Notes: generated by a model not told the origin, from the sequence alone. Counted from the first letter of the stretch, positions 38,626 to 54,660 are shown. The stretch is 64,000 nucleotides of DNA from an uncultured Verrucomicrobiae bacterium (GCA_963702845.1 OY969763.1:2144001-2208000), one strand, 5' to 3'. Translations and numbers: made by a program.

Positions 38626-38725
38626 ATCGAGCGAGTAAATCTTACAGAAGAAGACGGGCAGTCAATGGTAAGTTGGGCATACGTCACGGCACGGGCGTAT
38701 CTCATTTTTTTGCAGGCGTCCAGAT

Positions 38726-39024: not shown

Positions 39025-40443
39025 TCAGTAGCCGACGGTGATTTCCAGGGGTTGGTGTGTTATTTTTGTGGCGCGGTGCGCGAGCGCTAAGGCCCAGAAG
39101 CGGTCGGAGTGGCCGGACTCGCTGCGGTCGGCGGTGAAACGGGTGTTGCCGCTTTTCGTCGGCTCTTTTCTAATCGCGCGGAGATCCGCGCGGATTTCGG
39201 GGGAGCTTGGGATTTTTATGGTGCGGTCTTCGAAGGCCATTCGCACTGGATAGGCTAGTTCTTCTTTCATGGCCTGGGTGAAGGTGATGCCTTCGACTTT
39301 GTATTTGCCGAAGCGTTGTTGGGCGCGTTCGGTGAATTGGCGGCCGATTCCGGTCTGATCGATGCAGCAGCGTTTTACCTGCGGCATTTCCAAGAGTCCG
39401 TAGAGACACTTTTCTTGTTGTTCGAAGGGTTGGTTTTCCATGACTTCGATCCCGCGGGTGTAGTAGGTGCTGCCGGATTTTTCGAGGACCCAGATGACGG
39501 TGCGGTCTTTGTCGCGGCCGATGTCGACGCCGACGAAGAGTTCGGGGTCAGTCAGGTTGGCGGGTGTTTCCCATTCTACGCCGTGCGAGTATTCGGCGGC
39601 GGTGATTAGGTCGTAGCTGAGGAACGCGCTGGCTTCGTCGGTGGAGACGCACATGTATTCCTGGTTGAAGGTTTCTTCGTCGATGGATTCGCGTTTTTTG
39701 AAGTTGAAGAAGTCGGCTTCGTCCATTTGTTGGATGGGATCGTTGGGTGGGAGTTGGGATTGGATTTTGTAGAGGCCACCCTGCTCTAGAAAATTTTGGA
39801 AGGTGATTTTGTAGTAGCTGAAGCCGCGCGGGTTGCCGTTGTGTTCGATGTCCATCATGAGGCGGTGGAACAGCGTGCTGGTGCCGCGCGGGGTGGAGAA
39901 GATGGAGAGTGAGCCGCCCCACATGGTTCCGGGGACGGCAATGGAGTAGAGTTTTTCCTGGTCGGGATGGAGTGCGAATTCGTCGAGGACGCGGTTGCCA
40001 CTTTTGCCGGCTTGAGCGTCGGGATTTGAAGAGAGGGAGTGGATGCGGGAGCCGTTGGCGAATTCGATGCAGTTGGCGTTGCCGAGGCGGTCGCCGAGGA
40101 TGAGGTCGCCGTGGTTTTCGAGCTTCAACGAGAGGCGTTGGGCGAAGAAGCGCAGATTGCGCAGATAATTTTGGGCGAGGCTTTCGTCGCGGCTGCTGAC
40201 GAATGTTTCGATGGGTTGGGTGGAGTAGGCGCTGCGAATGACGTTTGCGTATCCGTCAGCGTAGGTCCAGCCGATCTGGCGTGATTTGACGCAGAATTTG
40301 AAGCGGCAGTCGTCGACGGCCCAGCGGGCCTGATCGGGCAGAAGAAAACCCGTGGGACGGATTTTGGCTTTGCCGACGAAGATGGCGTTGGGGTTTTGCG
40401 TTTTGTTGAGGGGGATGCGATCGGCGTTTTCGATTGTTGTCAT
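39025..40443 (-). CDS. Phage terminase large subunit, Mu gp28-like
   Basis: KSRQIGWT Walker A region, VLDEFA Walker B, STPRG motif III, nuclease domain VGVDIGR, IDQTGIG, GHSDRFWALALA. Confidence 0.88.
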   Translation of the reverse strand: MTTIENADRIPLNKTQNPNAIFVGKAKIRPTGFLLPDQARWAVDDCRFKFCVKSRQIGWTYADGYANVIRSAYSTQPIETFVSSRDESLAQNYLRNLRFFAQRLSLKLENHGDLILGDRLGNANCIEFANGSRIHSLSSNPDAQAGKSGNRVLDEFALHPDQEKLYSIAVPGTMWGGSLSIFSTPRGTSTLFHRLMMDIEHNGNPRGFSYYKITFQNFLEQGGLYKIQSQLPPNDPIQQMDEADFFNFKKRESIDEETFNQEYMCVSTDEASAFLSYDLITAAEYSHGVEWETPANLTDPELFVGVDIGRDKDRTVIWVLEKSGSTYYTRGIEVMENQPFEQQEKCLYGLLEMPQVKRCCIDQTGIGRQFTERAQQRFGKYKVEGITFTQAMKEELAYPVRMAFEDRTIKIPSSPEIRADLRAIRKEPTKSGNTRFTADRSESGHSDRFWALALAHRATKITHQPLEITVGY

Positions 40444-40500
40444 AAAAATAAAGGATTCCTTTTTTGGCGGTTAAAGTTGTTTAAAGAAGTTTAAAGAAGT

Positions 40501-41238
40501 TTAAATCGTAGGGGTGATGGTGGTTGTTTTCGCGGGTTCGAAGTTTAAATCGGCGGCGATTTCGGATTTCACACTTGAGATTTGAGATGGCACGGGATTT
40601 GGGGTGTTGAAGCGCGGTGGCAGACCAAGGTCGGCAGCGATGACGGCGTAACCGGCAGCGGAGGTGGTTGGCCGGAATTGACTGGGTTGTGCTTTTTGTT
40701 TTTTCGCGATTTCGCCCTGGAGCTTTTGCTGGCGATAAGCGTTTCGGGTATGGGCACTGACGGAGCGCGAGAGGCGGAAGAAGTGCATCGGATCGGACTG
40801 AAGTTGTTGTTGCAGGTTTTCGATGCTGAAGGCTTTCATGAGTTTGGCGAGCTGAGTGGCCATGAAGAGATCGTTGAGCTGATGAAAGGACGCGGAGTTG
40901 GTGGCGCCGAGTTCGCGCAACAAATGGATATTAGCTTCGGATTGGGTGCGGATGATTTCGAGTTCCTGGCGGGAGTCGAGCCAGATGCGGTAGCCGGAAC
41001 GAGCCCATTTGGAGATGTTTGGGCCGTTGATGCCGTGGTGGCCCATTTGTTCGAGCTGGGAAATTATTTTGGAATAGCCAATGTTGTCGGCAAGGGATTG
41101 GTTGATGAATTCGCGAGCTTCGGTTGGAAGTCGGGAGATTTTGCTGGCGGGATGAGGACGAGGGATGCGAGGGATTGGTGTTTGTTTAGCTGCCGGTAAG
41201 TTATTTGTGGCAGTCGGATTTTCGGTTTGTGTATTCAT
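40501..41238 (-). CDS. DUF3486/Mu gp27-like protein (putative small terminase)
   Basis: N-terminal SKISRLP..RE.IN..L....Y..I...L...G......ISKW...GY..WL helix-turn-helix-like pattern; directly upstream of terL. Confidence 0.55.
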   Translation of the reverse strand: MNTQTENPTATNNLPAAKQTPIPRIPRPHPASKISRLPTEAREFINQSLADNIGYSKIISQLEQMGHHGINGPNISKWARSGYRIWLDSRQELEIIRTQSEANIHLLRELGATNSASFHQLNDLFMATQLAKLMKAFSIENLQQQLQSDPMHFFRLSRSVSAHTRNAYRQQKLQGEIAKKQKAQPSQFRPTTSAAGYAVIAADLGLPPRFNTPNPVPSQISSVKSEIAADLNFEPAKTTTITPTI

Positions 41239-41298: not shown

Positions 41299-41396
41299 AA
41301 AAATTGTTTGAAAATTCTTTTCTGCGGAAAGGAGTTGAAGATTAGGCGGTTACGGCAAAAGCAAGGGTCAAGCGCGATTTGATTTCTGGCAGATGG

Positions 41397-41472: not shown

Positions 41473-41498
41473 TATCTCTCCAACGTCCAGCGCGATTT

Positions 41499-41605
41499 GT
41501 TGCGCTTGATTCGCAGCGGCAGCAGAACAATAGTCTGCTCAACCAATATGAACCAACCGTTCGTATATCAAAATTACCGCGACACCCCGTCGCATAATCA
41601 TAGTT
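41499..41605 (+). repeat. 107-bp attI-like module, copy 1
   Basis: GTTGCGCTTGATTCGCAGCGGCAGCAGAACAATAG...CGCATAATCATAGTT; identity to the other copies stops just after GTT(AG). Confidence 0.9.
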
Positions 41606-41616
41606 AGCTGAAAACT

Positions 41617-41925
41617 ATGCGACGAGACTTGCTCCTAACGGCGATAATGGGTTTCGCCCTATGCATTTTCAGCTTCGCTGTATCACTGGCCAGGCCTACA
41701 GACTTCGGCCCGCTAAGTCTTGGAATCGCAAAGGCCGAGGAATCTTATGGACTGTCCCGCGAGGGTAGAGACATGCTTGATTCACATGCTGAGAACCTAT
41801 ATCGCGAGTACAGTTCTGAGGTGAGCACGTATTCTACCGCTTGGTACATCGCTCTAGGCGGACTGTTCATCATGTCCTCCAGCTGTCTTATGTTGTATGT
41901 GTACCATCGAAAAAAGAGCAGCTAA
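41617..41925 (+). CDS. Gene cassette ORF, small 2-TM hypothetical protein
   Basis: Bounded by GTTAGCTG (41603) and its exact reverse complement CAGCTAAC (41919-41926) overlapping the stop. Confidence 0.75.
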   Translation: MRRDLLLTAIMGFALCIFSFAVSLARPTDFGPLSLGIAKAEESYGLSREGRDMLDSHAENLYREYSSEVSTYSTAWYIALGGLFIMSSSCLMLYVYHRKKSS

Positions 41926-41942
41926 CCAGAGCGCTTCAGCGC

Positions 41943-43598
41943 CTATGAGGTTTGTCAATACGTAGTGTGCGTCGATGATAGTTTTTTTGGGGTTGATCGC
42001 GCGGAGCGCAGTGGAACGAAGCGCAGTCGCGCGCGGCAGGCGGTTGGACATTGGTTCAATCCGCACCTGTTGTTCTTCTCGAGTCTCCGCTTATCTGTTC
42101 CTCTTCAAAGTTCCTTTCTTATTTCTCTCAAAGCAGGTTGCGTGAAGTTTGCTGCATCGGTGTCGCCGCGTTTTGTGTGTCGGGAGTTTGTCCCGCACCA
42201 GCTCCTATCCGGACAGTTGAGATAAGACTCAACGCCCACTGTGTCTTACTTGCCTGACTGCGGCGACCGGGGAGTCCGCCCCTTCTAACGGACGGATGAA
42301 CGCAAGGTTCACCAGCTGAAGCTACGGACTGGACTCGCCCGATCGCAAATTGTTTCACGCTCTTAACTCTGGAGGTTCTACTCACGAAAAAATTAAATGT
42401 GGTTCACACGCCGACCCAGCCGAGGTCTGCCATGGTGCAACGGCCGGTTCGCCAGCGCCAGAGGTCCACGGCCAGTTGCCGGGCAAGGGCAATGACAGTT
42501 TTCTTCTTCATGGCCGTGCCGGCGGCAAGTTTGGTTTTCATTTTAAGTGCGGCCTTCCACCCCGGTTGCCACATCAGAAAACGCCAGACCGCTTCCACCA
42601 GGATCGCTCTGACTCGTCCGTTGCCCATGCGATCGATGCTGCCGACGCGCCGTTTGCCTCCTGAACTGTGTTCGCCCGGGCAACATCCGGTGTAGCTGCC
42701 AATCTGTTTGCGATTGTGGAAGCGCTGCCAGTCGCACACTTCGCCTTCCAGTGTCACAAGAGTGATCTCGCCAAGGCCCTTGGGCCGTGGTTGTTCTTTG
42801 ACCCGCGCAATCAGTTCCTCTTCCAGTTCCTGCCGTTGTGTCTCCATGGCGACGAGGACCTCGCGGAGCTTTTCGAGAACACTGAGCAGCCACGGATCGA
42901 GGGTGGAAAGTTTTTTCCAGTTGCGCGCTCCCCACCAGCGATGGGGCAGTTTGACGTGGCTGTATTCGGCGGCTTGGCCGTGACCGCGATTGGCGAGCAT
43001 GCGAATGGCTTTGTTGAGGAACTGTCTTCGTCGCGTGCCTTCGCGCTGGCGCTGCTCTTTGTCCGAAGGAATGCGGATGGGTGCAAGTTCGTTGATGTTG
43101 CCATCAACCCAGCGAGAGAGGCGCAGGCAAAGAGCGCGCGCGTCCAGCTTGTCGGTCTTGCGCTGGCCGTTGAGGGCAATCGGCGTGATCAAAAAACTTT
43201 GCGCACCGGCGGCGACCAGTTCGCGATGGAGCACGAAGCCGAACCCACAGCTTTCCTGCACGCAGAAAACTTGCAGGCCTTCGCTGGTCCACTTCTGAAC
43301 CTGGGCGATGAGTTGCTCACGGCTGAATTTGCGTGGCGCTTGGGGTGAAGCGTGATCACGTTGGGCTACCGCCATGATGAACTCCAGATGCACGTCCAGG
43401 CCAAGCTTGAGAGCCGGTTTGCCGGCAAGCAGCACAGGACGTGGCAAAGGCTGGCGCGGCGGCACGTTTGCCAGCTTGCCCGCGGCAGGCACGCTGGTTA
43501 GGGTTGGGACTGTCATGTGGGGTTTGAGTAAATATGTTTTCATTTTCAAAAACATCGTGACCCCGTGTGGGGCTGCGACTCAACCCTTCATGACATCT
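41943..43598 (-). mobile_element. IS110-family insertion sequence
   Basis: Transposase inside; proposed CT core at both junctions (GCGC-CT-ATGAGG; GACAT-CT-GACGG); outward-reading TTGACA near the downstream end; ~460-bp non-coding downstream end; boundaries inferred. Confidence 0.75.
42404..43555 (-). CDS. IS110-family transposase/recombinase
   Basis: DEDD RuvC-like motifs GLDVH, QESCGFG, KTDKLDA; C-terminal YTGCCPGEHSSG. Confidence 0.92.
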   Translation of the reverse strand: MFLKMKTYLLKPHMTVPTLTSVPAAGKLANVPPRQPLPRPVLLAGKPALKLGLDVHLEFIMAVAQRDHASPQAPRKFSREQLIAQVQKWTSEGLQVFCVQESCGFGFVLHRELVAAGAQSFLITPIALNGQRKTDKLDARALCLRLSRWVDGNINELAPIRIPSDKEQRQREGTRRRQFLNKAIRMLANRGHGQAAEYSHVKLPHRWWGARNWKKLSTLDPWLLSVLEKLREVLVAMETQRQELEEELIARVKEQPRPKGLGEITLVTLEGEVCDWQRFHNRKQIGSYTGCCPGEHSSGGKRRVGSIDRMGNGRVRAILVEAVWRFLMWQPGWKAALKMKTKLAAGTAMKKKTVIALARQLAVDLWRWRTGRCTMADLGWVGV

Positions 43599-43609
43599 GA
43601 CGGCCGCCG

Positions 43610-43768
43610 CTAAGAACCCCATTTCCAATCGCGGATCTCCGGCATGTCGTCGCCGTGCTCGCGGATGTAATGTTTGTGTTCCATGAGTTTGTTTTGGATG
43701 GCCTGTTTGGCGTAGGCGGCCCGCGCGCCCAGTTGCGGCAGGCGGTCGATCACGTCGGCGAAGAGATG
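43610..43768 (-). pseudogene. Displaced 3' fragment of phosphoketolase (copy 1)
   Basis: About 135 bp identical to xfp 54686-54819; last codons differ (EIRDWKWGS* vs EMRDWKWSA*). Confidence 0.92.
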
Positions 43769-43774
43769 CGTTCT

Positions 43775-43860
43775 GTTGCGCTTGATTCGCAGCGGCAGCA
43801 GAACAATAGTCTGCTCAACCAATATGAACCAACCGTTCGTATATCAAAATGACCGCGACA
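43775..43860 (+). repeat. attI-like module, copy 2 (truncated before the GTT core)
   Basis: First 86 bp match the consensus, then the sequence switches to unrelated coding DNA. Confidence 0.9.
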
Positions 43861-45305
43861 GCTATTGGAGGCGGTCGGCGGCAGGTCTGGGACTGATGGG
43901 ATGGTTGCTAGCGGCTATCACCGGAAGCGGGCTTTCCCGAGCCGAGGTCGGAGGAAGCGAAGCGAAAAATCCCGTTCTAAAACCAACGTTGCACGGGGTG
44001 GTTCTGACCACCAATAGCGTTCCGATTACCAACGCCACCGTGACGATTAAGAGAATGCTGGCCGGACGCGGAGCCGTGTATGTTTCCGATGCGCCAGAAT
44101 GCAACCGGCAGGCAATGACGAAGGCCGATGGGAGTTTTGCCTTTGAGGGTTTGGCAGAGAACGCGAAGGTTGTGGCCGTGGTCACCGCGCCCGGCTACGA
44201 ACTGGAAACGGTATACACCGCGCGTGACAACCTGCCAGCAGGGTTTTGGTCGCATCCGGCTGCTGCCCAGGCTTTGGAAATTAAGATGCTCCCGGCACCA
44301 GCCGGAGACAATCCACAGCAAACGGTTCACGGACGCGTCGTGAACGCTGATGGCAAACCGGTGGCGGGAGCGACGATCCTGGTTCATATGCTCCATACGG
44401 AGCGTGATTGGCACTCAGGAGGCGGGACGGCGTTCACCGACCAGCAGGGTAAATTTGCTTTTCGACCCAGAGAAAATATTATCGCCTGTGATTTTACCAT
44501 CGAGGCGGATGGTTGCGTGTCACGGAGTTTTTCTGAAGTCCATCCGGGTCTCGGCACGAACATATACCAATTAAGCCAAGGTACCCGCCTCACTGGCCGC
44601 TTACTGAAAGACGGCCAGCCCGTGCCGGATGCCGGGATCGGAATTTACGATGTTAAAGGAGTAGGTTTGCTCAATAATTTTTCAACAGTCACGGATGGGA
44701 ACGGGAGGTTTACTTTTTCAGGCCTTCAGGCACACGAGGAATTCTATTTATTTGGCATCATGCGGTCACTGCGGGAACTTGGCGCGTTGCCCCGGCAGCA
44801 CATCAAAACCGGGGACGACGGCACGCGCATCGAACTGGGAGATTTGAACCTCGTAAAAGGCTATACAATCTCCGGCAGGGTGCAGATGCCGGATGGCAAC
44901 TCAACCCGTGTTGCGGCGTTCACGCTGGCCCGAACGGAACTCACTCCGCCGACCGATCATGCGCCGACCAAGCAGGAAGAGAGCAACCGATCCTTTTACG
45001 GACTGGAGCATTCATTTGACAACTGGCGGGCCGACCCCGGAGCAGACGGAAAGTTTGAATTCACCGGCGTGCCTGGCGAAACCGTTTCCATTTTTTTGAT
45101 GTTGAAACCGTTCGACATGGTATCGCCACGAAATATTAGCAGCGACGGGAAAGGATTCCGGTTGTTGGGAATGGTGGTGAGCAACAAGATCGATTTGGTC
45201 ATCGAGCTTGAGCCGCACAGTGGACAAGTTTTTCCTCCAGCCCGGGACTATTTGGTGTTAAGCCGACAGCCGTTGGAGGGAGCGGAGGCGGCTGTTGCAA
45301 AATGA
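43824..45305 (+). CDS. Secreted protein with tandem carboxypeptidase-regulatory-like beta-sandwich domains
   Basis: Repeats of the type GRVVNADGKPVAGATI...TDQQGKF, GRLLKDGQPVPDA...TDGNGRFTFSGL; start either in the repeat (43824) or at 43896. Confidence 0.75.
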   Translation: MNQPFVYQNDRDSYWRRSAAGLGLMGWLLAAITGSGLSRAEVGGSEAKNPVLKPTLHGVVLTTNSVPITNATVTIKRMLAGRGAVYVSDAPECNRQAMTKADGSFAFEGLAENAKVVAVVTAPGYELETVYTARDNLPAGFWSHPAAAQALEIKMLPAPAGDNPQQTVHGRVVNADGKPVAGATILVHMLHTERDWHSGGGTAFTDQQGKFAFRPRENIIACDFTIEADGCVSRSFSEVHPGLGTNIYQLSQGTRLTGRLLKDGQPVPDAGIGIYDVKGVGLLNNFSTVTDGNGRFTFSGLQAHEEFYLFGIMRSLRELGALPRQHIKTGDDGTRIELGDLNLVKGYTISGRVQMPDGNSTRVAAFTLARTELTPPTDHAPTKQEESNRSFYGLEHSFDNWRADPGADGKFEFTGVPGETVSIFLMLKPFDMVSPRNISSDGKGFRLLGMVVSNKIDLVIELEPHSGQVFPPARDYLVLSRQPLEGAEAAVAK

Positions 45306-45446
45306 GGATTCAAGCGCGACCACAGTCGCGCATTCGCCTGATCCTGCACGAATGAAATCTGGAGTAGAAGAGTAAGTGGCGTAGATCGCGCTGTGGGGTT
45401 GCAATTTTGAAATCAGATTGATGAAGAGCGCCTCGTTGGTCTGCCG

Positions 45447-45517
45447 CTACGCGCTCCATTTCCAATCGCGGATCTCCGGCACGTCGTAGCCGTGCTCGCG
45501 GATGTAATGTTTGTGTT
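45447..45517 (-). pseudogene. Displaced 3' fragment of phosphoketolase (copy 2)
   Basis: Matches xfp 54661-54731 with 4 mismatches; joins module copy 3 at a shared GTT. Confidence 0.9.
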
Positions 45518-45621
45518 GCGCTTGATTCGCAGCGGCAGCAGAACAATAGTCTGCTCAACCAATATGAACCAACCGTTCGTATATCAAAATGACCGCGACA
45601 CCTCGTCGCATAATCATAGTT
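45515..45621 (+). repeat. 107-bp attI-like module, copy 3
   Basis: One substitution against the consensus; followed by cassette starting GTTAGGCC. Confidence 0.9.
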
Positions 45622-45643
45622 AGGCCACTCCACACGCTTTGCT

Positions 45644-46021
45644 ATGCTCGACCTCGCCATTGCATCCAAAGAGAGACACGACCGCTTCGTTCAGCGCGTT
45701 GTCGCTTCACGGGAGGTTTGGGGCCTGAAGAACGCAGACGGATGGGCTTGCACAGCCTCGTCGTCGGACGGCACAGAGGACAGGAGCGTTGTGCCTTTCT
45801 GGTCGGACCGCGCCTACGCCAAGCAGTGCGCGAAGGATGATTGGTCAGATTACGAGCCGACACCGATTCCTTTGGAGTTGTTTGTAGGTCAGTGGTTGCC
45901 CGGCATGGCTGCAGATAGTTGTCTTGTCGGCACGAATTGGAACGTGCAGCTTTGTGGTCATGAGATTGAGCCGTCGGAGTTGCGGCAGGAGATTGAGAGG
46001 CACGATGGACACGCGGCCTAA
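45644..46021 (+). CDS. Gene cassette ORF, DUF2750-like protein
   Basis: VWGL...GWA...VPFWS..AYA..C...W..YEP..I.L..F...WLPGM..D...VG.NW; stop lies inside GGCCTAAC. Confidence 0.75.
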   Translation: MLDLAIASKERHDRFVQRVVASREVWGLKNADGWACTASSSDGTEDRSVVPFWSDRAYAKQCAKDDWSDYEPTPIPLELFVGQWLPGMAADSCLVGTNWNVQLCGHEIEPSELRQEIERHDGHAA

Positions 46022-46108
46022 CTATGCGCTGCAGCGAACCCGGCCATCGCGCTCTGGTTGCAATCCACGTGCCTCGTGGGCCGGGTCGCTGAGCTTGGGT
46101 CGTTCGGC
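46016..46108 (+). other. attC site (complete, 93 bp)
   Basis: GCCTAAC...GCTGCAGCGAACCCGGCC...GGCCGGGTCGCTGAGC...GTTCGGC: imperfect palindrome with extrahelical bases. Confidence 0.9.
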
Positions 46109-46112
46109 CAAC

Positions 46113-47276
46113 ATGCGTATGCACACCAAATCCATCGTCCGCACTCTTCTCCTCACCGGAGTTCTTATCGTTCAGCCGCAGTTGTTCGCGCAGGAGAAAT
46201 CCCGCCACATTCTTCCAGACGATCCAGCCAAGGCTTGGGCCGAGGTCGAAAAAGTTCACCAAGCATTGAGACCACCGGATGATTGGCGGTCGCACGAACC
46301 GGCGGCGGAACGGGTAGCTGAGTTTCAAAAGCAGGTTCGTCAAACAGCGGTGTCTTTCGCCGACAAAGCTCAGGAGTTTATTGAGCGTTTTCCTACCAAC
46401 GAGAACGTCGGTGACGCTCGCATTACGGTTGTTCACGCGTTGAGCCATGCCGTAGCGGCGGGGGATGCAGAAGCGGAGAGGCGGATTGCGACGTTTGTCT
46501 CCACAGTTCTGGCCGACAGAAGCATCCCGGAAGATGGCCGCGCTGGAGTTTTGCTTTATTCAGGGAACGCAGCGTTTATGAAGAAAGTCGGGATGCGGTT
46601 GTTCACTGAAGGGTTGGGCAAGCTGAACGACGAATTTGAGAACGAGAGCATCGAGAGCATGCGCGCCGCGCTGAAGCAGTTTCCGTCCAATTCCATGATT
46701 TTCACCATGCTCGTCGCCGTCGCCCAGCGTTCGACAGGCGAGCGACAGAAGGAGTTGGCCACGGAGATTATCGGCGCGCCCGGCGCACCGACGGGCGCGA
46801 AGACCTTAGCGAATCATCTCCTGAAAGGGACGAAGCCGTATCAGGTGGGACAGCCCCTGGATATTCGTTTCACCGCGCTGGATGGGCGCGAGGTGGATCT
46901 GGCGAAGCTGAAGGGCAAGGTCGTGCTGGTGGAGTTTTGGTCCACGACCTGCGGACCGTGCATCGCTGAGATGCCAAACGTGAAAGCGGCTTACCAGAAA
47001 TTGCACGACCAGGGATTGGAGGTCGTGGCGATTTCGCTCGATGAGAAGGAAAGTGCCTTGCGGCGCTTCATCAAAGAGAAGGTGCTACCGTGGCCGCAGC
47101 ATTTCGACGGCAAGGGTTGGGAGAACCAATTTGCCGTGCGATACGGAATTTTTAGCATCCCGACGATGTGGCTGGTGGACAAGCGTGGCAATTTGCGGCA
47201 GACCAACGTTCGCGGCGCCCTTGAGCAGCGCATCACATCACTGCTTGATGAGCGGACATCTCCCACGCCAAAATGA
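46113..47276 (+). CDS. Gene cassette ORF, secreted TlpA-like thioredoxin-fold protein
   Basis: Signal peptide; KGKVVLVEFWSTTCGPC; cassette bounded by GTTCGGCC (46102) and GGCCGAAC (47301). Confidence 0.85.
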   Translation: MRMHTKSIVRTLLLTGVLIVQPQLFAQEKSRHILPDDPAKAWAEVEKVHQALRPPDDWRSHEPAAERVAEFQKQVRQTAVSFADKAQEFIERFPTNENVGDARITVVHALSHAVAAGDAEAERRIATFVSTVLADRSIPEDGRAGVLLYSGNAAFMKKVGMRLFTEGLGKLNDEFENESIESMRAALKQFPSNSMIFTMLVAVAQRSTGERQKELATEIIGAPGAPTGAKTLANHLLKGTKPYQVGQPLDIRFTALDGREVDLAKLKGKVVLVEFWSTTCGPCIAEMPNVKAAYQKLHDQGLEVVAISLDEKESALRRFIKEKVLPWPQHFDGKGWENQFAVRYGIFSIPTMWLVDKRGNLRQTNVRGALEQRITSLLDERTSPTPK

Positions 47277-47300
47277 ACATGGACGACTTCAGGAATAACT

Positions 47301-47323
47301 GGCCGAACAAACCGGATGCACTG
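47301..47323 (+). other. Truncated attC (inverse core end only)
   Basis: GGCCGAAC-AAACCGGATGCA; exact complement of the cassette start; no matching right arm. Confidence 0.6.
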
Positions 47324-47364
47324 CTTTAGCGCTTTCTTTATTATTTCAGTCTTTGCGGCGTAGG

Positions 47365-47398
47365 CTGTTTGGCGTAGGCGGCACGCGCGACCAGTTGC
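47365..47398 (-). pseudogene. Third small phosphoketolase remnant
   Basis: 32/34 identity to xfp 54754-54787. Confidence 0.75.
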
Positions 47399-47445
47399 CG
47401 CGCGGCAAGACCGCGACCAGTCAATGGCAAGTTGAGCTGACGTGT

Positions 47446-50400
47446 TTACTGTGACGCGCGGTAATACCCTTGCGGCGAATTTAAAATGTTGTCGTCGACA
47501 ATTTGCCAGGAACCGTTTGTGTTCAGGAATGTCGTGAGCGTCGTCCAATTCAGCAAATCTGTGCTGCGTTGGATTGAGTTCGTTGAGCCGGGATTTCCAC
47601 TTCCATTGATTTGGACGCGTCCATCGACGAATTGGACAATTTTCTCGAAGAAAACCGGCGCGACGGTGGGGATGATTTTCATGGCTAGAATTCCGTTGTT
47701 GGAATCCAACGCATAAACACGATCGTTGCCAAAATCGACGGCGCCGACACCGAAGGCGTTGGTATTTGCGGTGGCAAAATTTGTTTGTGCGATGAGAACG
47801 GGCGCGCCGTTGGTTAGAGTCAAATCGTAGAGTTGAAGATTTTCGGGCCTGTTCAGGCTAATGCCGGCGAGTAGATTCATTTCCGCGCCGACGCCGATCG
47901 GTGAAATCGCCAACGGGAAACCGGCATAGTTCGCCAGAGTTGTGCCGGTGCTGCCAGAATAGGAAACATTCAATAAAGACAGCCCGTTGGCCTTGCCCCA
48001 AAATGTGTTGTCCGCGCCGAAGGTGAGCCCCAATCCAAAGTTGCCTGAGGAAGAATTCGCAACGTTAATCGCGCGTGAACTGAAGGTCACACCGTCGGAT
48101 GTGGTCAGTAACGCTACGCTGAGACCGCTGCGTGATCCGATCAGGACCTGGGTGTTCGTGCCGGAACCGCGCACAACAAAAGTATCGCCCCAGCGTTCGT
48201 TATCGCCGGGAGCCGGATCGCCGGAAAACATCAGGACCGGCGGCGCGCTCGCATCGTCACTTCCCCAACGATAAAGACGAAACGGCGTGGTAGCTCCGAC
48301 GGTGGTTAGATTTCCGGCATAGATAGCACCGTCGTCCCCTGCACCGATCATGAGTAGATTATAGGTTCCGCCCGTAACCACCGATCCATCGACATTCATC
48401 GTCCAGAGGTCAGCGCCCGAATCGCCATCGAGCACGTTGATTTGCGTTGAGGGGTTGCGGCTGACCACGATGACATGATTTCGCGAAGCGTTGTATGCCA
48501 TGCCGCGATCAGTTTGTCCGGTGCTTGCCAGATACGGCCTCGATCCGCCACCAAGGCTCCAAAGCTTGGTCCAACCTGCGGCATGAAATGTCGGGTTAAC
48601 GACAATCGTCGCAGTAGCGCTGATGACGCCACCGACGTCGTTGCTGATGGTTACGAAATAGTTCCCTGCTTGGGCGGTTGAGATGTTCGGCAAGACTAAA
48701 CTGGACGCTGTTGCTCCAGGCAACGGACTGCCGTTGAAATTCCATTGGAAGAGCAGCGTAGGACTTCCAATGGCACCGACGGAGAGCGTGACCGTTTTAC
48801 CTTTGATTACATTCTGGCTCGACGGCTGCGCTGTGATGAATGGTTTTATCACGGTGACCGTCAAGGTGGCGTCGGAACTTGTTGCCGAGCCGTAAGCATT
48901 TGTCACAACGACGGAGTAACTGCCGGCGTCGTTTGTCGTTAGATTATTGCGGGAATAGCTGGAGCCAGTTGCACCGGAAATATCGGCGCTATTGAATCGC
49001 CATTGATAACTCAAGGGCGGACCGCCCGTCGCAATGACACTGAAGGTCGCAGTCGCGGCAAAATTCTGGGTCTGGCTTTGCGGCTGTTGCGTGATGCTTG
49101 GGACGGGAATGATCACTGTGAGAACAGCGTTCGAACTTGTCGCTGTGCCAACGGTGTTGCTGGCGATGAGCGTATAAGCACCCGCATCACCGGGTTGTAT
49201 ATTCGCATTGCTATAACTCGTATCTGTTGCGGCGGCGATGTTCGTCCCGTTGAGCTGCCATTGATACGTGGGTGTTGGGGTTCCAGACGCCGCTGCAGAG
49301 AAGGTCGCGCCGTTACCTGCAGTAACAGTCTGGCTTTGCGGCTGGGCCGTAAATGACGGCGCAGTCGGAATAGAAGAGAGAGTGGTTGCGCTGGCTTGCG
49401 TCGAGATGGCGGAGGTTCCCAGGTAGTTTGTGGCACGCACCGTATAATAATAGGTCGTGTTGGCAGCGAGGCTGATATCGCTGAAGGCGGTAGCGTTGAC
49501 TGGCAGGGTCGCGATATCGGTGAAAGGTCCGCCCGATATAAAACTGCGCGCAACAACGTATCCTGCTTCGTTGGTTGCGTTGTTGGCCCACGTAAGGTCG
49601 ATCTGCGAACTGCTCACTGGAAGCGCAATCAAGCTGGCCGGTTTCGCCGGCACGGACGTCGGATAAACGAACATCAATTTAATTCCGTCGGCCATCGGCA
49701 CGTTTCCGTCCAACGTCGCGTCCGTCATGCGAATCGTCGTTGTCCCACTGCCAAATGGAAATCTCCCGACATAACTCCAAATGCCGGCGTTGGTCGTTTG
49801 GTCCGCATAAACGGTCTGCGCACCAGTCGCGCAATTCACAATAACCGGAACGCTCGCTGACGCATCCGCCCGGAATGGATGCCATTGAAAAACGTTGTAA
49901 TCACCGGCAACGAGGACCTTTGGCGAAAACTCCGCGTATGCCGTTCCAGAGCCTGTTGCCTTTTTGCGATAGCTGATGCCAAACGCGTTCGTGTCCGTCC
50001 CTGTTTCACCCAAAAATGTCACGGTGGCGCCTGTGTTGCAGAAGACAGTTGTAATCGGCGTCCACGAACCGACGAAGTTCGCGCTCGCTTCATCGATGCA
50101 AATATTGTTCACGACATTGGAAAAAATCCCCACGGTGGACTCCTTAACTTTTGTCCACTGCGTTGGATTGTAGAGTTCGACACGAAACCAATTCGCTGAA
50201 TTGAACGGCGCGGGGCCCGGGCGATTCACGTCGGCCATCATGTAATCAACGAACTCCGTGATGTCATTCGGCGGAGTTAACGTGGTGCCGCTGGTGCCGT
50301 TGTAGATCTCGCGCATGTACCACACCGGCTTGATCGAATTCGTCCAATAGATCGTCTGCCCATTGATGACGCTGGAAGTGCCGACGAGGCCGGCGTAAAA

Positions 50401-51171
50401 CGCGTTGTAATTCGTGTCCGTCCAATTAATCGCCGCGCTGGCGCTGCCCTTCGTTGCCGCGTGATGGTAAACCTGCGGGATGACGACGTCCGACCAGTAG
50501 CCAAATTCCCTGTATGGAAAAGACGAATGCAGACCCAGCGTGTCGAACGGATTATGCGCGATAAACTTCGTCGGGAACGCGGCGCGCAATTGCGAGCACA
50601 TATACCAGGCTTGGACGGGACCGTTCGTGATTCCTGGATGCCCGGCTTCCCATTCCGCTTCCGCATCCCAGATAAATCCATCGCCGCCGACACTGAAGAC
50701 ATATCTCGCGACGTTGTTTTCTCCATCGAGGTCAGAACCGTACGAGCGATTAGACCCAAAAATCAGCAGGCCAGCGTTGTGCGCCTTTTGCACCAGGCTC
50801 GGGCTGAACTGCGCGGCAGCGGTGTTGTTGGTCGAAACGTTGCCCGAACCGGTCCAAAGCATGTTGCTCGTGCCGGCTTTGACGATGACGTGCGACATCC
50901 CTTGCGATTTGATGTAGGCGAACATGCTGTCGACGTTGGTCACGCCCGGGACATTTCCGCCGAGTTGATTGGTGGCGCTCGAAAGGATATACAGCCACGC
51001 GCCGGTTCCGACATTGGCCGGATCAAACTGACCGTACCAACAATCGCGCAACACGGCCGACGCTGGCCCGCACGACAAATGCAGGATGAGCAGGCAAAGA
51101 AGTTTTAAGGAGAGGCGGCGCAAAGCGGTTGGGACGCTTTTGAGCCGGCAGCGGCATTTTAACGATGACAT
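47446..51171 (-). CDS. Large secreted multidomain protein (GH-like barrel, golvesin-like module, FN3, three Ig domains, propeller-like domain, C-terminal tail)
   Basis: VIVKAG / IWDAEAEWE / PQVY barrel-like motifs; SSSQIDLTW...YYYTVRATN FN3; three P..TxQP.SQ...YQW..NG Ig repeats. Confidence 0.8.
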   Translation of the reverse strand: MSSLKCRCRLKSVPTALRRLSLKLLCLLILHLSCGPASAVLRDCWYGQFDPANVGTGAWLYILSSATNQLGGNVPGVTNVDSMFAYIKSQGMSHVIVKAGTSNMLWTGSGNVSTNNTAAAQFSPSLVQKAHNAGLLIFGSNRSYGSDLDGENNVARYVFSVGGDGFIWDAEAEWEAGHPGITNGPVQAWYMCSQLRAAFPTKFIAHNPFDTLGLHSSFPYREFGYWSDVVIPQVYHHAATKGSASAAINWTDTNYNAFYAGLVGTSSVINGQTIYWTNSIKPVWYMREIYNGTSGTTLTPPNDITEFVDYMMADVNRPGPAPFNSANWFRVELYNPTQWTKVKESTVGIFSNVVNNICIDEASANFVGSWTPITTVFCNTGATVTFLGETGTDTNAFGISYRKKATGSGTAYAEFSPKVLVAGDYNVFQWHPFRADASASVPVIVNCATGAQTVYADQTTNAGIWSYVGRFPFGSGTTTIRMTDATLDGNVPMADGIKLMFVYPTSVPAKPASLIALPVSSSQIDLTWANNATNEAGYVVARSFISGGPFTDIATLPVNATAFSDISLAANTTYYYTVRATNYLGTSAISTQASATTLSSIPTAPSFTAQPQSQTVTAGNGATFSAAASGTPTPTYQWQLNGTNIAAATDTSYSNANIQPGDAGAYTLIASNTVGTATSSNAVLTVIIPVPSITQQPQSQTQNFAATATFSVIATGGPPLSYQWRFNSADISGATGSSYSRNNLTTNDAGSYSVVVTNAYGSATSSDATLTVTVIKPFITAQPSSQNVIKGKTVTLSVGAIGSPTLLFQWNFNGSPLPGATASSLVLPNISTAQAGNYFVTISNDVGGVISATATIVVNPTFHAAGWTKLWSLGGGSRPYLASTGQTDRGMAYNASRNHVIVVSRNPSTQINVLDGDSGADLWTMNVDGSVVTGGTYNLLMIGAGDDGAIYAGNLTTVGATTPFRLYRWGSDDASAPPVLMFSGDPAPGDNERWGDTFVVRGSGTNTQVLIGSRSGLSVALLTTSDGVTFSSRAINVANSSSGNFGLGLTFGADNTFWGKANGLSLLNVSYSGSTGTTLANYAGFPLAISPIGVGAEMNLLAGISLNRPENLQLYDLTLTNGAPVLIAQTNFATANTNAFGVGAVDFGNDRVYALDSNNGILAMKIIPTVAPVFFEKIVQFVDGRVQINGSGNPGSTNSIQRSTDLLNWTTLTTFLNTNGSWQIVDDNILNSPQGYYRASQ

Positions 51172-51211
51172 GGGTTTGCTGCCTATCGTAAATGGCCCGC
51201 TGAGTGAGTCA
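51085..51211 (+). repeat. 127-bp direct repeat copy B
   Basis: Partner of 38874-39000; spans the start of the 1241-aa gene. Confidence 0.9.
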
Positions 51212-51241
51212 ACTTAAAGCCTTGTTCACGTGGTAAGAATA

Positions 51242-51273
51242 TGCGAACTGTTGGCGCAGATTAATTGTTAGGC
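51242..51273 (+). other. Diverged fifth attI-like site
   Basis: TGCGAACTGTTGGCGCAGATTAATTGTTAGG aligns ungapped to the module end CGCGACACCCCGTCGCATAATCATTGTTAGA; ORF starts 24 bp after GTT. Confidence 0.5.
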
Positions 51274-51290
51274 GTGACCAGTTCCACCAC

Positions 51291-51620
51291 ATGAATCAAG
51301 TGCATGACCTAAAGGACTTGCTGAGAAACGTTGTTGCGGAGGGGGATTTCGGGCTGACGCTGCGCACAGGGGAGTCAACTGTGGTGCATACGAAAGCGGG
51401 ACCGAAGCGACTCGAAGGAACGAATCCGACGCACGAAGAGATTACGGACTTCCTCCGGCGAGTCTCGGGTTCCAGAGGCATGCGCGAGTTTCGCAACAGC
51501 GGAGTCACCCGGTTCATAGTTCCGTTTGAGGGCGGAGTTCGTTTGGTGGGAGCCGCCCGATTGGAAAAGGACGACATCCACGTTGAGATACGCAGGATGA
51601 TTGGAAATGACAAACGGTAG
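51291..51620 (+). CDS. Small protein resembling a stand-alone PilT N-terminal domain
   Basis: DLKDLL..VV.EG...L.LRTG...V......RL......EE....L......MREF...G...F.......R pattern by eye; no ATPase domain. Confidence 0.5.
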   Translation: MNQVHDLKDLLRNVVAEGDFGLTLRTGESTVVHTKAGPKRLEGTNPTHEEITDFLRRVSGSRGMREFRNSGVTRFIVPFEGGVRLVGAARLEKDDIHVEIRRMIGNDKR

Positions 51621-51640
51621 AACCGGAACGCGAGTCTGAA

Positions 51641-52051
51641 ATGCTACGGTCCATTATTGTGTTTGTGAGATATGTCGCCGCAATTGTTGTGGCGTACATA
51701 GTTTCTTTTGCCGTGTTCTTCGGTGGAGCAGCATTGGTATACGTCATTTTTAAGAATTGTCCTGAGTGGATGATGAGGTTCGCTATGGGAGCTCAGTTTG
51801 CTCTGTTTGCGGCCGTTGGCTTTTGTGGGGTAATCTCAGGCACTCTGTGTCTGGAGAAAAAAGGTCGGCGCCTTGGTTCGGTTGTGTTGTCATTGTTAGG
51901 CTTGGCGTTCTATGCGTGGTTTACTCTTACGACGGAAGGGGATGAGCCGGGAGGAAATGTGTGGTTTCCTTACGTTTGGCTCTTGCCGTTAGCTATCGGC
52001 GGCTCGCTGGGATTTCTATTCTTTTTCCGGCAGCAATTGACACGCGATTGA
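51641..52051 (+). CDS. Hypothetical 4-TM membrane protein
   Basis: 136 aa, four hydrophobic segments. Confidence 0.65.
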   Translation: MLRSIIVFVRYVAAIVVAYIVSFAVFFGGAALVYVIFKNCPEWMMRFAMGAQFALFAAVGFCGVISGTLCLEKKGRRLGSVVLSLLGLAFYAWFTLTTEGDEPGGNVWFPYVWLLPLAIGGSLGFLFFFRQQLTRD

Positions 52052-52107
52052 TTAGCGCTGGCGGTTTCGTCGCGCCCTCACCGGTGGCGTCCATTTACTG
52101 CACGTTT

Positions 52108-52950
52108 TTAACTCGTCGTCACCGTCCACCCCCGCGCGAATAAGGTATTTTTGCTGGTGACACCGGCGGCGCTGGGGGCGGCGTTGGTGCCGTTGCAAAT
52201 GACGTTGCCGTTGTGCGCGCCGTTGGTGACGAGTTGGGCGAGGAGATTGTCGACTTTGGCGCTGTCCCAACCGCAATCGATGGCGGTGATGTCGAGGGTG
52301 GCGGCGGGAATAGTTGGAACAACCGTCCAGGCGGTGCCGTTGATGTAGAGCGCGCCGAGGCTGGCGGGCAAGGCGGGCAATGTGGTGAACGGGCACTGTC
52401 CGGCGTTGAGTTGTGTCAGCGCGGTCCCGGCCAAAGCGGGCAAGGCAGTGAGGCCGCTTTGCGACACGTTGAGCTGGACCAAGGTCGCGGGCAAGGCAGG
52501 CAAGCTGGTGAGGTTCGCGCAGGCGGTGATGTCGAGGTCTTGGAGCGCGGGCGGCAAGGCCGGGATGGAAGTGTAGAGGGCGGCGGCCATGGAAAGGGAG
52601 ATGAGCGCGGCGGGGAAAGTGCAGAGCAAAGGTTCGGGCGCGCCGGCGCTGTCGAGGAGGAGGGACTGAATGGTGCTCGGGAGCGTGAGGTTGGTGACGG
52701 CGCTGCCGGTGAAGCTGATGTCCACGCAAGCGCTGAAGGTGCCTTCGGAAAATTTTATGGTGGTGGCCTCATGACCGTCGGCGATGATTTCGCTGATGCC
52801 GTCGGGAAAAGAGCCGCCGCTGAAAATGATGGGGTGATTGCTTCCCGGCGACCAGCTGATGAAGTCAGCGAGGGTGCCGGTGGGCGTGCTGCTGGGAACG
52901 GCTTCCAAGCCGCGTTCGCGCAAATATTTTCTGATTTCTTCGATGGTCAT
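52108..52950 (-). CDS. Leucine-rich repeat protein (LPX type)
   Basis: ~20-aa repeats TSIPALPPALQDL, LTSLPALPATLVQL, FTTLPALPASLGAL; start placed at MTIEE because the ORF-track start lies in a REP. Confidence 0.75.
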   Translation of the reverse strand: MTIEEIRKYLRERGLEAVPSSTPTGTLADFISWSPGSNHPIIFSGGSFPDGISEIIADGHEATTIKFSEGTFSACVDISFTGSAVTNLTLPSTIQSLLLDSAGAPEPLLCTFPAALISLSMAAALYTSIPALPPALQDLDITACANLTSLPALPATLVQLNVSQSGLTALPALAGTALTQLNAGQCPFTTLPALPASLGALYINGTAWTVVPTIPAATLDITAIDCGWDSAKVDNLLAQLVTNGAHNGNVICNGTNAAPSAAGVTSKNTLFARGWTVTTS

Positions 52951-52968
52951 GGTGGTATTGGTGGAAAA

Positions 52969-53047
52969 GGTAGGGACGCGTTCCACCGCGTCCCCAATAT
53001 TATTTTTGTGAAGGAAAGAATGGGACGACGTGGAAGTCGTCCCTACC
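52969..53047. repeat. GTAG-family REP doublet (REPIN/BIME-like)
   Basis: GGTAGGGACGCGTTCCACCGCGTCCC ... GGGACGACGTGGAAGTCGTCCCTACC in inverted orientation. Confidence 0.75.
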
Positions 53048-53049
53048 GG

Positions 53050-53670
53050 TTACGGTTTGCAACTGACCACGACTTCATTGCTGAAGTTGCCGACGACCTG
53101 GTCGTTGACCATGAACTTGGCGCGGTATTCGCGCAACTCGGCTTTGCCCACGGCGAGCATGGGCCGGTTATCGAGGTAAGGCGAATGCAGCGGAGTCGCC
53201 AAACGGGTGAAGTCCGGTTCATCGCCGCGTTTGCATTCGATGTAAATGGCTTCGCTCAGGCCGCGCTTGGCCCGGATTTCGACAATGCCACCGCCTTTAT
53301 CCACGGCGCTCAATTCGGGCGCGGTAGTGTTCAGGTCATCGGTGATTTCAGGGCCGACGATGCCGAGGGCGTCGGCGATGGCCGGTGTCAAATTGCTGGA
53401 AGCGCGGGCTTTTTTGGCGGCGAGCCGGGCGTGGGTTTCGGCGCCGAGACGACTCATCGTTTTGGCGTCGGCGGCGGCTTTGGCGGCAGCTTTGGCCGCG
53501 ACGTTGGCGGAGAACTTGGTGTGAATATCGGTGTTATCAGCCGTAATCGGGGCCGTATCACCGACGACTAACCCAAGAGTAGCCGCATTGGCCAGAAGCT
53601 GAGTCTTGAAGTTATCGTGCCAGGCCAGGAAGGCATCGTCGCCACGGGGAATGAATCCATCTCTTTGCAT
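53050..53670 (-). CDS. Hypothetical protein (helical N-half, FN3-like beta C-half)
   Basis: 206-aa ORF with protein-like composition, FIPRGDDAFLAW..NF start, YLDNRP...E.REYRA. Confidence 0.7.
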   Translation of the reverse strand: MQRDGFIPRGDDAFLAWHDNFKTQLLANAATLGLVVGDTAPITADNTDIHTKFSANVAAKAAAKAAADAKTMSRLGAETHARLAAKKARASSNLTPAIADALGIVGPEITDDLNTTAPELSAVDKGGGIVEIRAKRGLSEAIYIECKRGDEPDFTRLATPLHSPYLDNRPMLAVGKAELREYRAKFMVNDQVVGNFSNEVVVSCKP

Positions 53671-53740
53671 ATGTTGTTTATTTCTAAGTGTTTATACCAT
53701 TGTTTAGGACTAGTTTTTGGAGGTTGGGAGGATTTGTCCA

Positions 53741-53952
53741 GAGCCGCCGAACAACCGTACAGCGGCGCTGTGCAACTGTTCGGAGCGGCTGAACAACAGT
53801 ACAGAACCGCTGTACGGTTGCACGGCGGCGCTGAACAACAGTACCCGAGCCGCCGTCCAATTGAACGCCGCCGCCGAACAACCGTACAGAGCGGCCGTAC
53901 AACAGGTACGGAGCCGCTGTGCAATTGAACGGAGGGATTGTACAAACGGACG
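53741..53952. repeat. Degenerate 21-bp tandem repeat, about 10 units
   Basis: GAGCCGCCGAACAACCGTACA, GCGGCGCTGTGCAACTGTTCG, GAGCGGCTGAACAACAGTACA... Confidence 0.75.
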
Positions 53953-54077
53953 AAGGAAGTACAACGTCGCGCCCAAGCTCCGGATACCGATTCCGGAACG
54001 CCCACCCGTGCTTTTTTGAACCCGCCACATTTTCCGCCCGCGTTTGTGCCAAAGGCCCAAGGTGAGGTCAAGTGTTT

Positions 54078-54184
54078 GTTGCGCTTGATTCGCAGCGGCA
54101 GCAGAACAATAGTCTCCTCAACCAATATGAACCAACCGTTCGTATATCAAAATGACCGCGACACCCCGTCGCATAATCATTGTT
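54078..54184 (+). repeat. 107-bp attI-like module, copy 4
   Basis: Two substitutions against the consensus; followed by cassette starting GTTAGAC. Confidence 0.9.
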
Positions 54185-54199
54185 AGACCACTGTGCCTT

Positions 54200-54544
54200 A
54201 TGACATGGAAGCGATGCTTCACAAAGAAAATCTTGGGACTCGTGTTAGCGGCCATCATTTTCTTAGGGCTGCTCACGGAATTCATCGGCGCACCGCAGGT
54301 CCACAAGGTGGTAGTCGCCACGATGCCCATCAAACCATCTTTCACGGAGATTTCGCGTGATAACACCCAGCGTGTTGCTGGTCCGGTTTATTACTGCAGT
54401 GCGGTAGCGTATGCTCCGTTTCTCGTTCGGGTCGATTACGGTTGGAACGCAGGCGGCGAGACCGGCGGAGGTGCGAGTGCGTTTTACTTTTGGATTTTTG
54501 GCATCACATTTCGAGTTCACGAGTTTGGGCATTGGATGTCATGA
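54200..54544 (+). CDS. Gene cassette ORF, hypothetical protein with N-terminal TM
   Basis: Between GTTAGAC (54182) and GTCTAAC (54555). Confidence 0.75.
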   Translation: MTWKRCFTKKILGLVLAAIIFLGLLTEFIGAPQVHKVVVATMPIKPSFTEISRDNTQRVAGPVYYCSAVAYAPFLVRVDYGWNAGGETGGGASAFYFWIFGITFRVHEFGHWMS

Positions 54545-54554
54545 TTTACCAAAA

Positions 54555-54645
54555 GTCTAACAAGAGCGCTGCAGGCACGCGCGGGATTCCCGCTCTGTTC
54601 CATACCGAACGCTCGCCCCGCTCTGCCTGAGCGCTGTCGTTAGAC
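54555..54645 (+). other. attC site (complete, 91 bp)
   Basis: GTCTAAC-AAGAGCGCTGCAGGCA.G.GCGGG...CCCGC...TGCCTGAGCGCT-GTC-GTTAGAC. Confidence 0.9.
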
Positions 54646-54660
54646 TGCTTCGCACTTTCC

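Follow-up and report, generated by a model that had tools for sequence, protein, structure and literature searches.

Introduction

An integron normally has its attachment site, attI, once and beside the integrase gene, intI; integron models assign one attI to each platform, with the cassettes near attI and its promoter being expressed and the remainder forming a silent reserve. Cassette arrays that lack an integrase, termed clusters of attC sites lacking integron-integrases (CALINs), are defined by attC alone, with sites about 4 kb apart or less, and attI is left unannotated outside classes 1–3. Here we describe a stretch of 64,000 nt from an uncultured Verrucomicrobiae bacterium (the window; bases 2144001–2208000 of the 6.03-Mb contig OY969763.1, GCA_963702845.1; genome G000, with an estimated completeness of 89.8%), in which a 107-bp attI-like sequence, module A, occurs four times between the genes purH and xfp; positions are those of the window unless marked as genome positions. 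Module A and a related attI-type sequence, module B, are multiplied throughout the genome, and many copies of module A are joined to dead fragments, or scraps, of xfp. We consider it moderately probable that an attI turned into cargo of composite cassettes and was dispersed during a period with an integrase, leaving arrays that are now frozen and decaying.

A described parallel is found in the ΔattI cassettes of class 1 and 2 mobile integrons, where a piece of attI replaces attC at the 3′ end of a unit, and attI is present more than once (Partridge et al., 2009, as cited; Gonzales Machuca et al., 2026, PMC12901181). Those cases sit in plasmid or transposon integrons that have intI, involve resistance genes, occur once or twice per array, and mostly keep 14–18 nt of attI, with one keeping 244 nt and one all 65 bp; in FN554979.1, a complete attI1 stands on both sides of a cassette, and IntI1 is described as excising and inserting ΔattI-bounded cassettes. 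The joins of an attC R″ core to attI that have been proposed for such cassettes are also seen in the present genome, where R″ is followed by positions 35–107 of module A (genome 1700120) and R″/L″ by module B (genome 4286.4 kb). The present system differs in keeping approximately 57–107 nt of the site, in having 31 + 47 copies at a dozen or more chromosomal loci, in its dead scrap of a housekeeping gene, and in the lack of intI.

CALINs (Cury et al., 2016, PMC4889954) resemble this genome in that their arrays have canonical attC sites while intI is missing from the neighborhood or from the genome as a whole; here, in contrast, many cassettes are separated by attI-type sites and not by attC alone, and the two model-detected attCs of the window lie 8.4 kb apart. 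Current integron finders would report such arrays as CALINs or not at all, and would miss the attI layer, because only attC and intI are annotated. Insertion at genomic attG sites with imprecise excision could bring an array to an intergenic GTT and alter flanking host DNA through a nearby GWT: cassettes insert at GWT sites of the genome, and their excision can be imprecise and modify the adjoining genomic DNA (bioRxiv 10.1101/2022.09.11.507474). The left edge of the purH-xfp insert (GGTAAG|TT) and two classes of scrap junction at GTT resemble such events; the attG study deals with single insertions and deletions in Escherichia coli and Vibrio cholerae, and contains no attI capture and no spread of host-gene scrap. 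Chromosomal integrons of the same family (genomes G011, G013, G015, and G018) have a sequence like that of module B, and show only a few extra attI copies, some of them beside 5′ intI fragments; compared with their attI, module A is further diverged, has an added hairpin unit, and has a different 5′ half. The ΔattI and CALIN descriptions do not cover dozens of full attI copies that are distributed chromosome-wide, lack intI, and are tagged with host scrap, and in the main texts of literature outside subscription journals we found no report of genome-wide attI multiplication. What this window adds is an intact source gene, an empty-site comparison with the same-genus genome G001, a list of junction classes, and a cassette swap across three loci.

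Module A and Its Cassettes

Direct reading, a repeat finder (family D1), and BLAST agree on four copies of module A on the plus strand, starting at 41499, 43775, 45515, and 54078 (Table 1), as the earlier note on this stretch had stated from the sequence; every copy begins with GTTGCGC and is 97–100% identical to copy 3, with BLAST E-values of 1e-40 to 1e-50 that are far beyond chance. The three full copies end in CGCATAATCAT(A/T)G|TT, and 12–20 nt past this end follows the ATG of an open reading frame (ORF), the three ORFs being unrelated. The claim that each copy heads cargo of its own stands for these three and fails for copy 2, which is truncated to 86 bp, lacks the crossover site, heads no cassette, and is fused to a gene for a 470-aa secreted protein whose likely start lies approximately 35 nt downstream. 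The exact recurrence of cassette starts as reverse complements, also part of the note, was found for all three full copies (GTTAGCTG/CAGCTAAC at 41919–41926, GTTAGGCC/GGCCTAAC at 46015–46022, and GTTAGAC/GTCTAAC at 54555–54561). The inverse cores at 46015 and 54555 are the 5′ ends of canonical attC hairpins (46016–46108, covariance-model E 7e-17; 54555–54645, E 4e-18), and 54555–54646 folds with z-scores of −3.5 and −4.4 on its two strands, which none of 200 shuffled sequences equaled. The remaining attC, that of the first cassette, is cut by an insertion sequence (IS) after its R″/L″ part and lacks its 3′ half. Copy 3 is followed by two cassettes; the second, of the redoxin type, has an inverse core (GGCCGAAC, 47301–47308) that matches its start (GTTCGGCC) and a degenerate attC that the covariance model does not detect. 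The two model-detected attCs of the window are 8.4 kb apart, and the degenerate site at 47301 would make a pair.

The IS in the first attC belongs to the IS110 family (Transposase_20, PF02371, 59 bits; DEDD_Tnp_IS110, PF01548, 18 bits, below the cut-off of 29) and has six copies of 95–100% identity in the genome, five of them interrupting the L″ arm of an attC at an identical point; it thus combines a Transposase_20 domain with insertion inside attC, as an attC-targeting element does. It may be akin to the IS1111-attC group of this family, a likeness drawn from domains and attC insertion. The first 12 nt of the IS resemble the attC arm that it interrupts.

In the genome, BLAST finds 31 copies of module A in approximately 12 loci; they lie on a single contig with distinct flanks and identities of 85–100%. 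The full 5′ half is present in 25 of them (one stops at position 53), and the other six share only the 3′ 59–73 nt. A covariance model was built from 18 attC sites of this genome, in whose alignment 13 of 14 predicted L″/L′ pairs show compensatory changes; with 150 of 1853 first-look candidates scored, it yields at least 49 sites at E ≤ 0.01 that have R″/R′ cores and extrahelical bases, two of them in the window. Most of these attCs (39/49) lie within 6 kb of a module A copy, and six hits fall within 2.1 kb at genome 1597–1599 kb. Among the 29 module A copies with an intact right end, an exact inverse core of 7–8 nt follows within 620 nt in 16, a count that leaves out two distant 7–8-mer matches, and a model-detected attC precedes the next module in 21. 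The other eight comprise two copies with IS-cut attCs, two in which R″ is joined to an attI-type module, three with attCs that the model missed and that are recognizable by eye (two of them degenerate), and one without any attC.

At three paralogous loci (window 54078, genome 5448936, and genome 5709575), module A and the region upstream of it, called U, are common at 96–97% identity, and so are, at 92–98%, TTAGAC-TGCTTCGC and the xfp scrap on the other side; between attI G|TT and attC G|TT, the three loci carry unrelated cassettes. Because they differ only in the cassette between the G|TT points, the right end of module A has served as a cassette junction, and it has the form known from attI, a GTTRRRY end whose G and TT are separated by the cassette boundary. 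Environmental contigs from one sample, with 90–95% identity, lend weak support and count as one observation: among the matches listed, the similarity of three contigs that reach module B from its left side ends at 51273, although each runs on for 51–552 nt, and in one contig xfp (to 54714) continues into the U/module start at 41489.

Module A was also sought outside this genome. A search of 40 relatives gave one 25-nt match (E 0.007). A core pattern of module A in genome contigs hit six loci, all chance matches in coding DNA without wider similarity, and two module A patterns in metagenome contigs had no match, in collections from which this genome and its close kin may be missing.

Relationship of Modules A and B to attI

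In the family relatives G011, G013, G015, and G018, the intI start codon and the G|TTAGGC crossover are 48 nt apart, and the site reads TTGGCCATTGTAATACACGAACAACCTGTTGTATATTAATTG|TTAGGC. A profile of six relatives' attI sites finds its best matches in the present genome in module B (E 4e-4 to 2e-3), which has 47 genome copies at E ≤ 0.01; over 19 sequences, module B and the relatives' intI-adjacent attI have a mean column identity of 83%, and they have in common ...ATAYRCGAACAR(C)YTGTYGYATATTAATTG|TTAGGC. The window holds one copy of module B, its fifth attI-type site and one that the note does not list, which heads two ORFs (51291–51620, 109 aa; 51641–52051, 136 aa, the latter apparently membrane-bound); no attC was found after it. 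Module B is homologous to the site between intI and the first cassette directly, and module A through module B: the 3′ ~57 nt of module A align to the module B consensus with a score of 44 (shuffled sequences, 15.2 ± 3.2; 0/5000 reach it), and directly to a relative's attI with a score of 26 (15/5000 reach it). Module B is the closer of the two to the intI-adjacent sites. Judged by these alignments, module A is a diverged attI derivative, related to attI via module B; the attI-like character asserted in the note is upheld, and so is its view that the attI platform has been multiplied (31 copies of A and 47 of B). In place of the one palindromic unit of the relatives, module A has two, GAAC-N5-GTTC and GCGAC-N5-GTCGC. 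As an attC, module A was a poor candidate and was rejected: it forms three short hairpins only (z −1.7, −1.3), and no L″/L′ pairing was seen by eye.

Several copies of a 5′ intI fragment together with attI, some with in-frame stops, were seen in G013, G015, and G011; attI has thus been duplicated along with its native left flank, at low copy number, elsewhere in the family too. A full-length intI in G013 (C192:2900-3500) is followed by the 3′ part of an attC-like sequence (masked N) ending in CGTTAGGC, where the 48-nt attI would be expected; the normal attI is kept by the 5′ fragment of a second intI, which lies 2.4 kb further upstream in this contig. The 5′ half of module A and the 5′ end of intI show short similarities by eye, for example CGCTTGATTCG and CGCTTCATTCG, which are no more than a lead that this half may be a relic of the intI 5′ end.

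The purH-xfp Insert and the Dispersed xfp Scraps

The same-genus genome G001, whose purH is 91% identical over 475 aa, has purH and the xfp stop codon approximately 68 nt apart; window positions 38676–54660 (16 kb) therefore represent an insert. The left edge of the insert reads GGTAAG|TT and thus lies at GTT. At its right edge, between the last cassette and xfp (54640–54660), the attC R′ GTTAGAC is followed by a 15-nt spacer. Besides the one full xfp, the genome contains 24 partial matches, namely 23 3′ scraps and an internal fragment at 47365. These scraps come from this lineage's own xfp, because they are 91–99% identical to the resident gene and the xfp genes of the same genus only 81%.

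Of the 25 full module A copies, 20 adjoin an xfp 3′ scrap, in six junction classes that are named after the end position of the scrap in a 321-nt xfp query. Class q75 (10 copies) reads ...GTGCTCGCG / AGCGCGTTKT-GTTGCGC, and class q180 (four copies, including window copy 2) ...GAAGAGATG / CGTTYT-GTTGCGC; classes q92 (two copies, including window copy 3) and q149 (two copies) pass directly to GTTGCGC; classes q72 and q150 (one copy each) pass into U. Only in q92 and q149 does the junction coincide with G|TT on the xfp side (TTTGTG|TTCC and CCCAG|TTGCGG) as well as on the module side. The fixed left end described in the note is therefore a property of four scrap-joined copies with a sharp GTTGCGC boundary; in the other 16, between 6 and ~30 nt of U intervene, and five of the 25 full copies have no scrap and run into U or another flank. 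U precedes module B, and not module A, at genome 1299.2 and 2346.5 kb, the switch coming directly after GGTCAAG(C/T)G, and U is also present at genome 5448, 5709, and 1731 kb.

At their other end, nine of the 24 partial xfp matches start on attC R′ G|TTAGAC or a few nucleotides from it, with the spacer TGCTTCGCxCTTTCC behind this core as at the intact gene; for these, a unit of scrap, module, cassette, and attC is bounded by crossover points. Units of the ΔattI type, with a 5′ crossover and a 3′ attI-derived site, are thus present elsewhere in the genome, in these nine scraps and in the R″-module A join at genome 1700120; the window's own two scraps start at the xfp stop codon and have no crossover to their left.

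Proposed Origin and Spread

These features could have arisen as follows. Module A would be a derived form of the family attI, in which the 3′ ~57 nt with palindromic boxes and the G|TTAGRC crossover became attached to ~48 nt of upstream sequence. A cassette array would have entered the purH-xfp spacer, bringing its last attC next to the xfp stop codon, and the 3′ end of xfp would then have been joined repeatedly to DNA just left of attI. What is observed is that the array adjoins xfp and that host DNA distal to the array has repeatedly been joined to DNA proximal to attI. The two G|TT junction classes fit the use of secondary sites by an integrase; in the other four, the joins appear illegitimate or the result of tandem duplication. 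Each join, whether by tandem duplication or by closure of a circle between the xfp site and a site left of attI, would create a unit of xfp scrap, attI, cassette, and attC, which an integrase could excise and reinsert via its attC at any attI, attC, or GWT site. Reinsertion through attC would give a linear product that begins with TTAGAC, spacer, scrap, and attI, as observed, and reinsertion as a composite cassette would explain attI as cargo at about a dozen loci. The integrase gene would since have been lost, or may never have been resident.

Several results weigh against this origin. In approximately 12 of the 24 scraps, the first nucleotide falls on the stop codon or beside it (query 19–23); their left flanks are of several kinds and lack an attC R′, and such starts are not predicted by a pure composite-cassette model. 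Four of the six junction classes, with 16 of the 20 copies, are not at GTT or GWT, so that integrase-made junctions cannot explain most copies. The profile of relatives' attI reaches module A only at E ~1–2, and no module A copy is among the 47 module B-profile matches; since profile searches give no direct connection, the link between module A and attI rests on the pairwise alignment of A and B. The extent of multiplication relative to the family is overstated by the comparison at hand: a sequence-only model of module B and relatives' attI (R2) has 37 matches here without intI, 0–6 in each of 24 other family genomes, and none in 16 genomes outside the family, but 13 of its 19 training sequences come from this genome, which inflates the contrast, and the relatives are fragmented assemblies. 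Finally, the modules of class q75 (10 copies) have a pairwise identity of 0.91, and the dead scrap 0.93; as module A is no better conserved than scrap, there is no sign of selection on it.

A more far-reaching possibility is that attI has here become a mobile, selectable unit, with docking site and promoter as cargo, by which any position in an array becomes a "first position". We regard this as rather unlikely. If true, the genome would contain a distributed integron with dozens of sites of entry and expression, open to re-arming by any incoming integrase of the family, and the xfp scraps would record the birth of cassettes that combine host flank and attI. Irrespective of this, the xfp scraps are a rare natural tracer that ties dispersed units to one source locus in this window, and the six independent joins of host DNA to attI flanks bear on the origin of non-canonical cassettes, and perhaps of new ones at large. 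If the sites are or were functional, their number would alter both the count of expressible cassettes and the places open to incoming ones.

Integrase Search and Signs of Decay

The earlier note placed the expected integrase in trans, outside the window. Its statement that the window contains none is confirmed, as none of the 11 tyrosine recombinase (PF00589) matches of the genome falls there, the nearest lying 14 kb past the window end; no candidate in trans came to light in this assembly either. Against a TIGR02249 cut-off of 265 bits for IntI, the best score in the genome is 86, and the two best places are Xer-like genes. When the IntI proteins from three relatives were used in a tblastn search for intI remnants (E up to 10), only these two genes were recovered, at 27% identity, and nothing near any array. 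A complete integron has intI and a single attI beside it; here, the 31 + 47 attI-like sites include none beside an intI. Among 41 genomes searched, with the present one included and negative, seven have an IntI above the cut-off, two of these in the same family.

With this background, an active distributed integron, in which, as in the note's reading, the many attI sites work as entry points that give first-position expression and are served by an integrase in trans, for example from a plasmid, phage, or unassembled replicon, appears improbable. The three paralogous loci that differ by exactly one cassette, the single environmental observation of contigs that diverge from the window at the crossover of module B, the existence of integron integrases in the family, and a genome completeness that leaves room for a missing replicon are in its favor; they are set against a 6.03-Mb contig with neither IntI nor a remnant of it, module copies that are no more conserved than dead xfp scrap, and visible decay. 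The IS110-family element sits in five attCs, module copy 2 has lost its crossover, and the attCs at 47301 and at genome 5449k and 5709k are degenerate; on these grounds, the arrays look frozen and decaying, as the proposed composite-cassette origin would have it.

Promoter Search

A different explanation starts from the cassettes themselves, whose ORFs begin ~8–25 nt past G|TT without an evident Shine-Dalgarno sequence. According to it, the modules were multiplied as expression elements: the 5′ half would be a promoter, the hairpins would act as a 5′ leader, together they would switch on silent cassettes, and the attI ancestry would be incidental. By eye, the 5′ half of module A holds TTGATT-17 nt-AATAGT; of the six copies that have just the 3′ 59–73 nt in common with it, five also show a TTG at this place in an otherwise different 5′ half, and the stems GAAC/GTTC and GCGAC/GTCGC are kept while their loops vary. 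However, palindromes with variable centers are equally expected of recombinase binding boxes, and the module shows no constraint beyond that of the scrap. No strict sigma-70 promoter was found in module A: a consensus scan gave two sites in the region, against 2.1 expected, both outside the modules. A search of 38000–58000 with Rfam in E-value mode found nothing on the modules, its four sub-threshold hits to microRNA models lying in tandem repeats, and no public RNA run contains the locus (the best of the public read sets contains 0.19 of the sampled words of the stretch). A promoter role as the reason for the multiplication is thus quite doubtful.

That the modules are unrelated to integrons, as ends of a transposon, miniature inverted-repeat transposable element, or island, or as an assembly artefact, and stand beside cassettes by chance, is very improbable: the copies are indeed dispersed with sharp ends, and an IS110-family element occurs in the same arrays, but no inverted partner end or target duplication was seen, the right end coincides with a cassette crossover in 16–21 of 29 copies, the module is homologous to intI-adjacent attI, and the copies differ in sequence and flanks.

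Other Features of the Window

The features of the insert and its borders are collected in Table 1.

Table 1. Features of the purH-xfp interval, in window positions.
Feature	Position	Strand	Remarks
Left edge of insert	38648..38675	.	purH-upstream spacer common with G001 as far as ...CAATGGTAAGTT, divergence beyond
Phage-type genes in insert	39025..41238	-	terminase large subunit 39025-40443 (Pfam Terminase_6N/6C)
Mu Gp27-like gene	40501-41238	-	Pfam Phage_Mu_Gp27; between purH and first module A
Module A copy 1, full	41499..41605	+	10 nt of U (AGCGCGATTT) just upstream
Cassette 1	41604..41931	+	ORF 41617-41925, 102 aa, no Pfam match; R″ CAGCTAAC 41919-41926
IS110-family IS	41932..43600	-	transposase 42404-43555; inserted in L″ arm of cassette 1 attC
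xfp 3′ scrap	43610..43768	-	159 nt from stop codon, 96-99% identical to resident xfp; joined to module copy 2 via CGTTCT (class q180)
Module A copy 2, truncated at position 86	43775..43860	+	no crossover site
Secreted-protein gene, 470 aa	43896..45305	+	carboxypeptidase-regulatory-like domains; not a cassette, no attC after it
xfp 3′ scrap	45447..45517	-	71 nt from stop codon, 94% identity; joined directly to GTTGCGC at G|TT of xfp (class q92)
Module A copy 3, full	45515..45621	+	found by direct reading, repeat finder, and BLAST
DUF2750 cassette	45620..46102	+	ORF 45644-46021; canonical attC 46016-46108
Redoxin/AhpC-TSA-type cassette, second in array	46103..47450	+	ORF ends 47276
Tandem-duplication junction (putative)	47365..47443	.	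internal xfp fragment 47365-47398 (94% identity) and spacer copy 47407-47443
Module B	51214..51273	+	family-type attI ending TTAATTG|TTAGGC; fifth attI-type site of the window
Region U	53603..54077	+	includes imperfect 21-bp tandem repeats 53736-53945; adjoins module A copy 4
Module A copy 4, full	54078..54184	+	all of U upstream
Last cassette	54183..54639	+	ORF ending 54544, ~115 aa, no Pfam match; canonical attC 54555-54645
xfp	54661-57072	-	only full-length phosphoketolase gene in genome; source of dispersed scraps

The spacer copy at 47407–47443 is 76% identical to the purH-upstream spacer at 38648–38684, and a repeat (D6) links 38874–39000 with 51085–51211 at 87% identity; the composition of 47365–47443 together with this repeat suggests that the entire purH-xfp interval was once duplicated in tandem and that the junction lies here. 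To the right of the putative junction follow a gene for a 1241-aa Ig-domain protein on the opposite strand and then module B with its two ORFs; after these come two genes of unknown function, U, module A copy 4, its cassette, and the attC adjoining xfp. The two genes, of 206 and 292 aa and left of U, were considered as recombinases and rejected, as they have no Pfam match and no recombinase features.

The 21-bp repeats at 53736–53945, inside U between the 206-aa gene and module A copy 4, are rich in inverted symmetry, and the array recurs at genome 5448.6 kb and 1298–1299 kb. Just upstream of the Mu Gp27-like gene, at 41258–41310, lies a hairpin with a perfect 10-bp stem (CACTTGGACA-AAGGC-TGTCCAAGTG) and an A-run after it, a member of a dispersed repeat with approximately 23 more copies in the genome.

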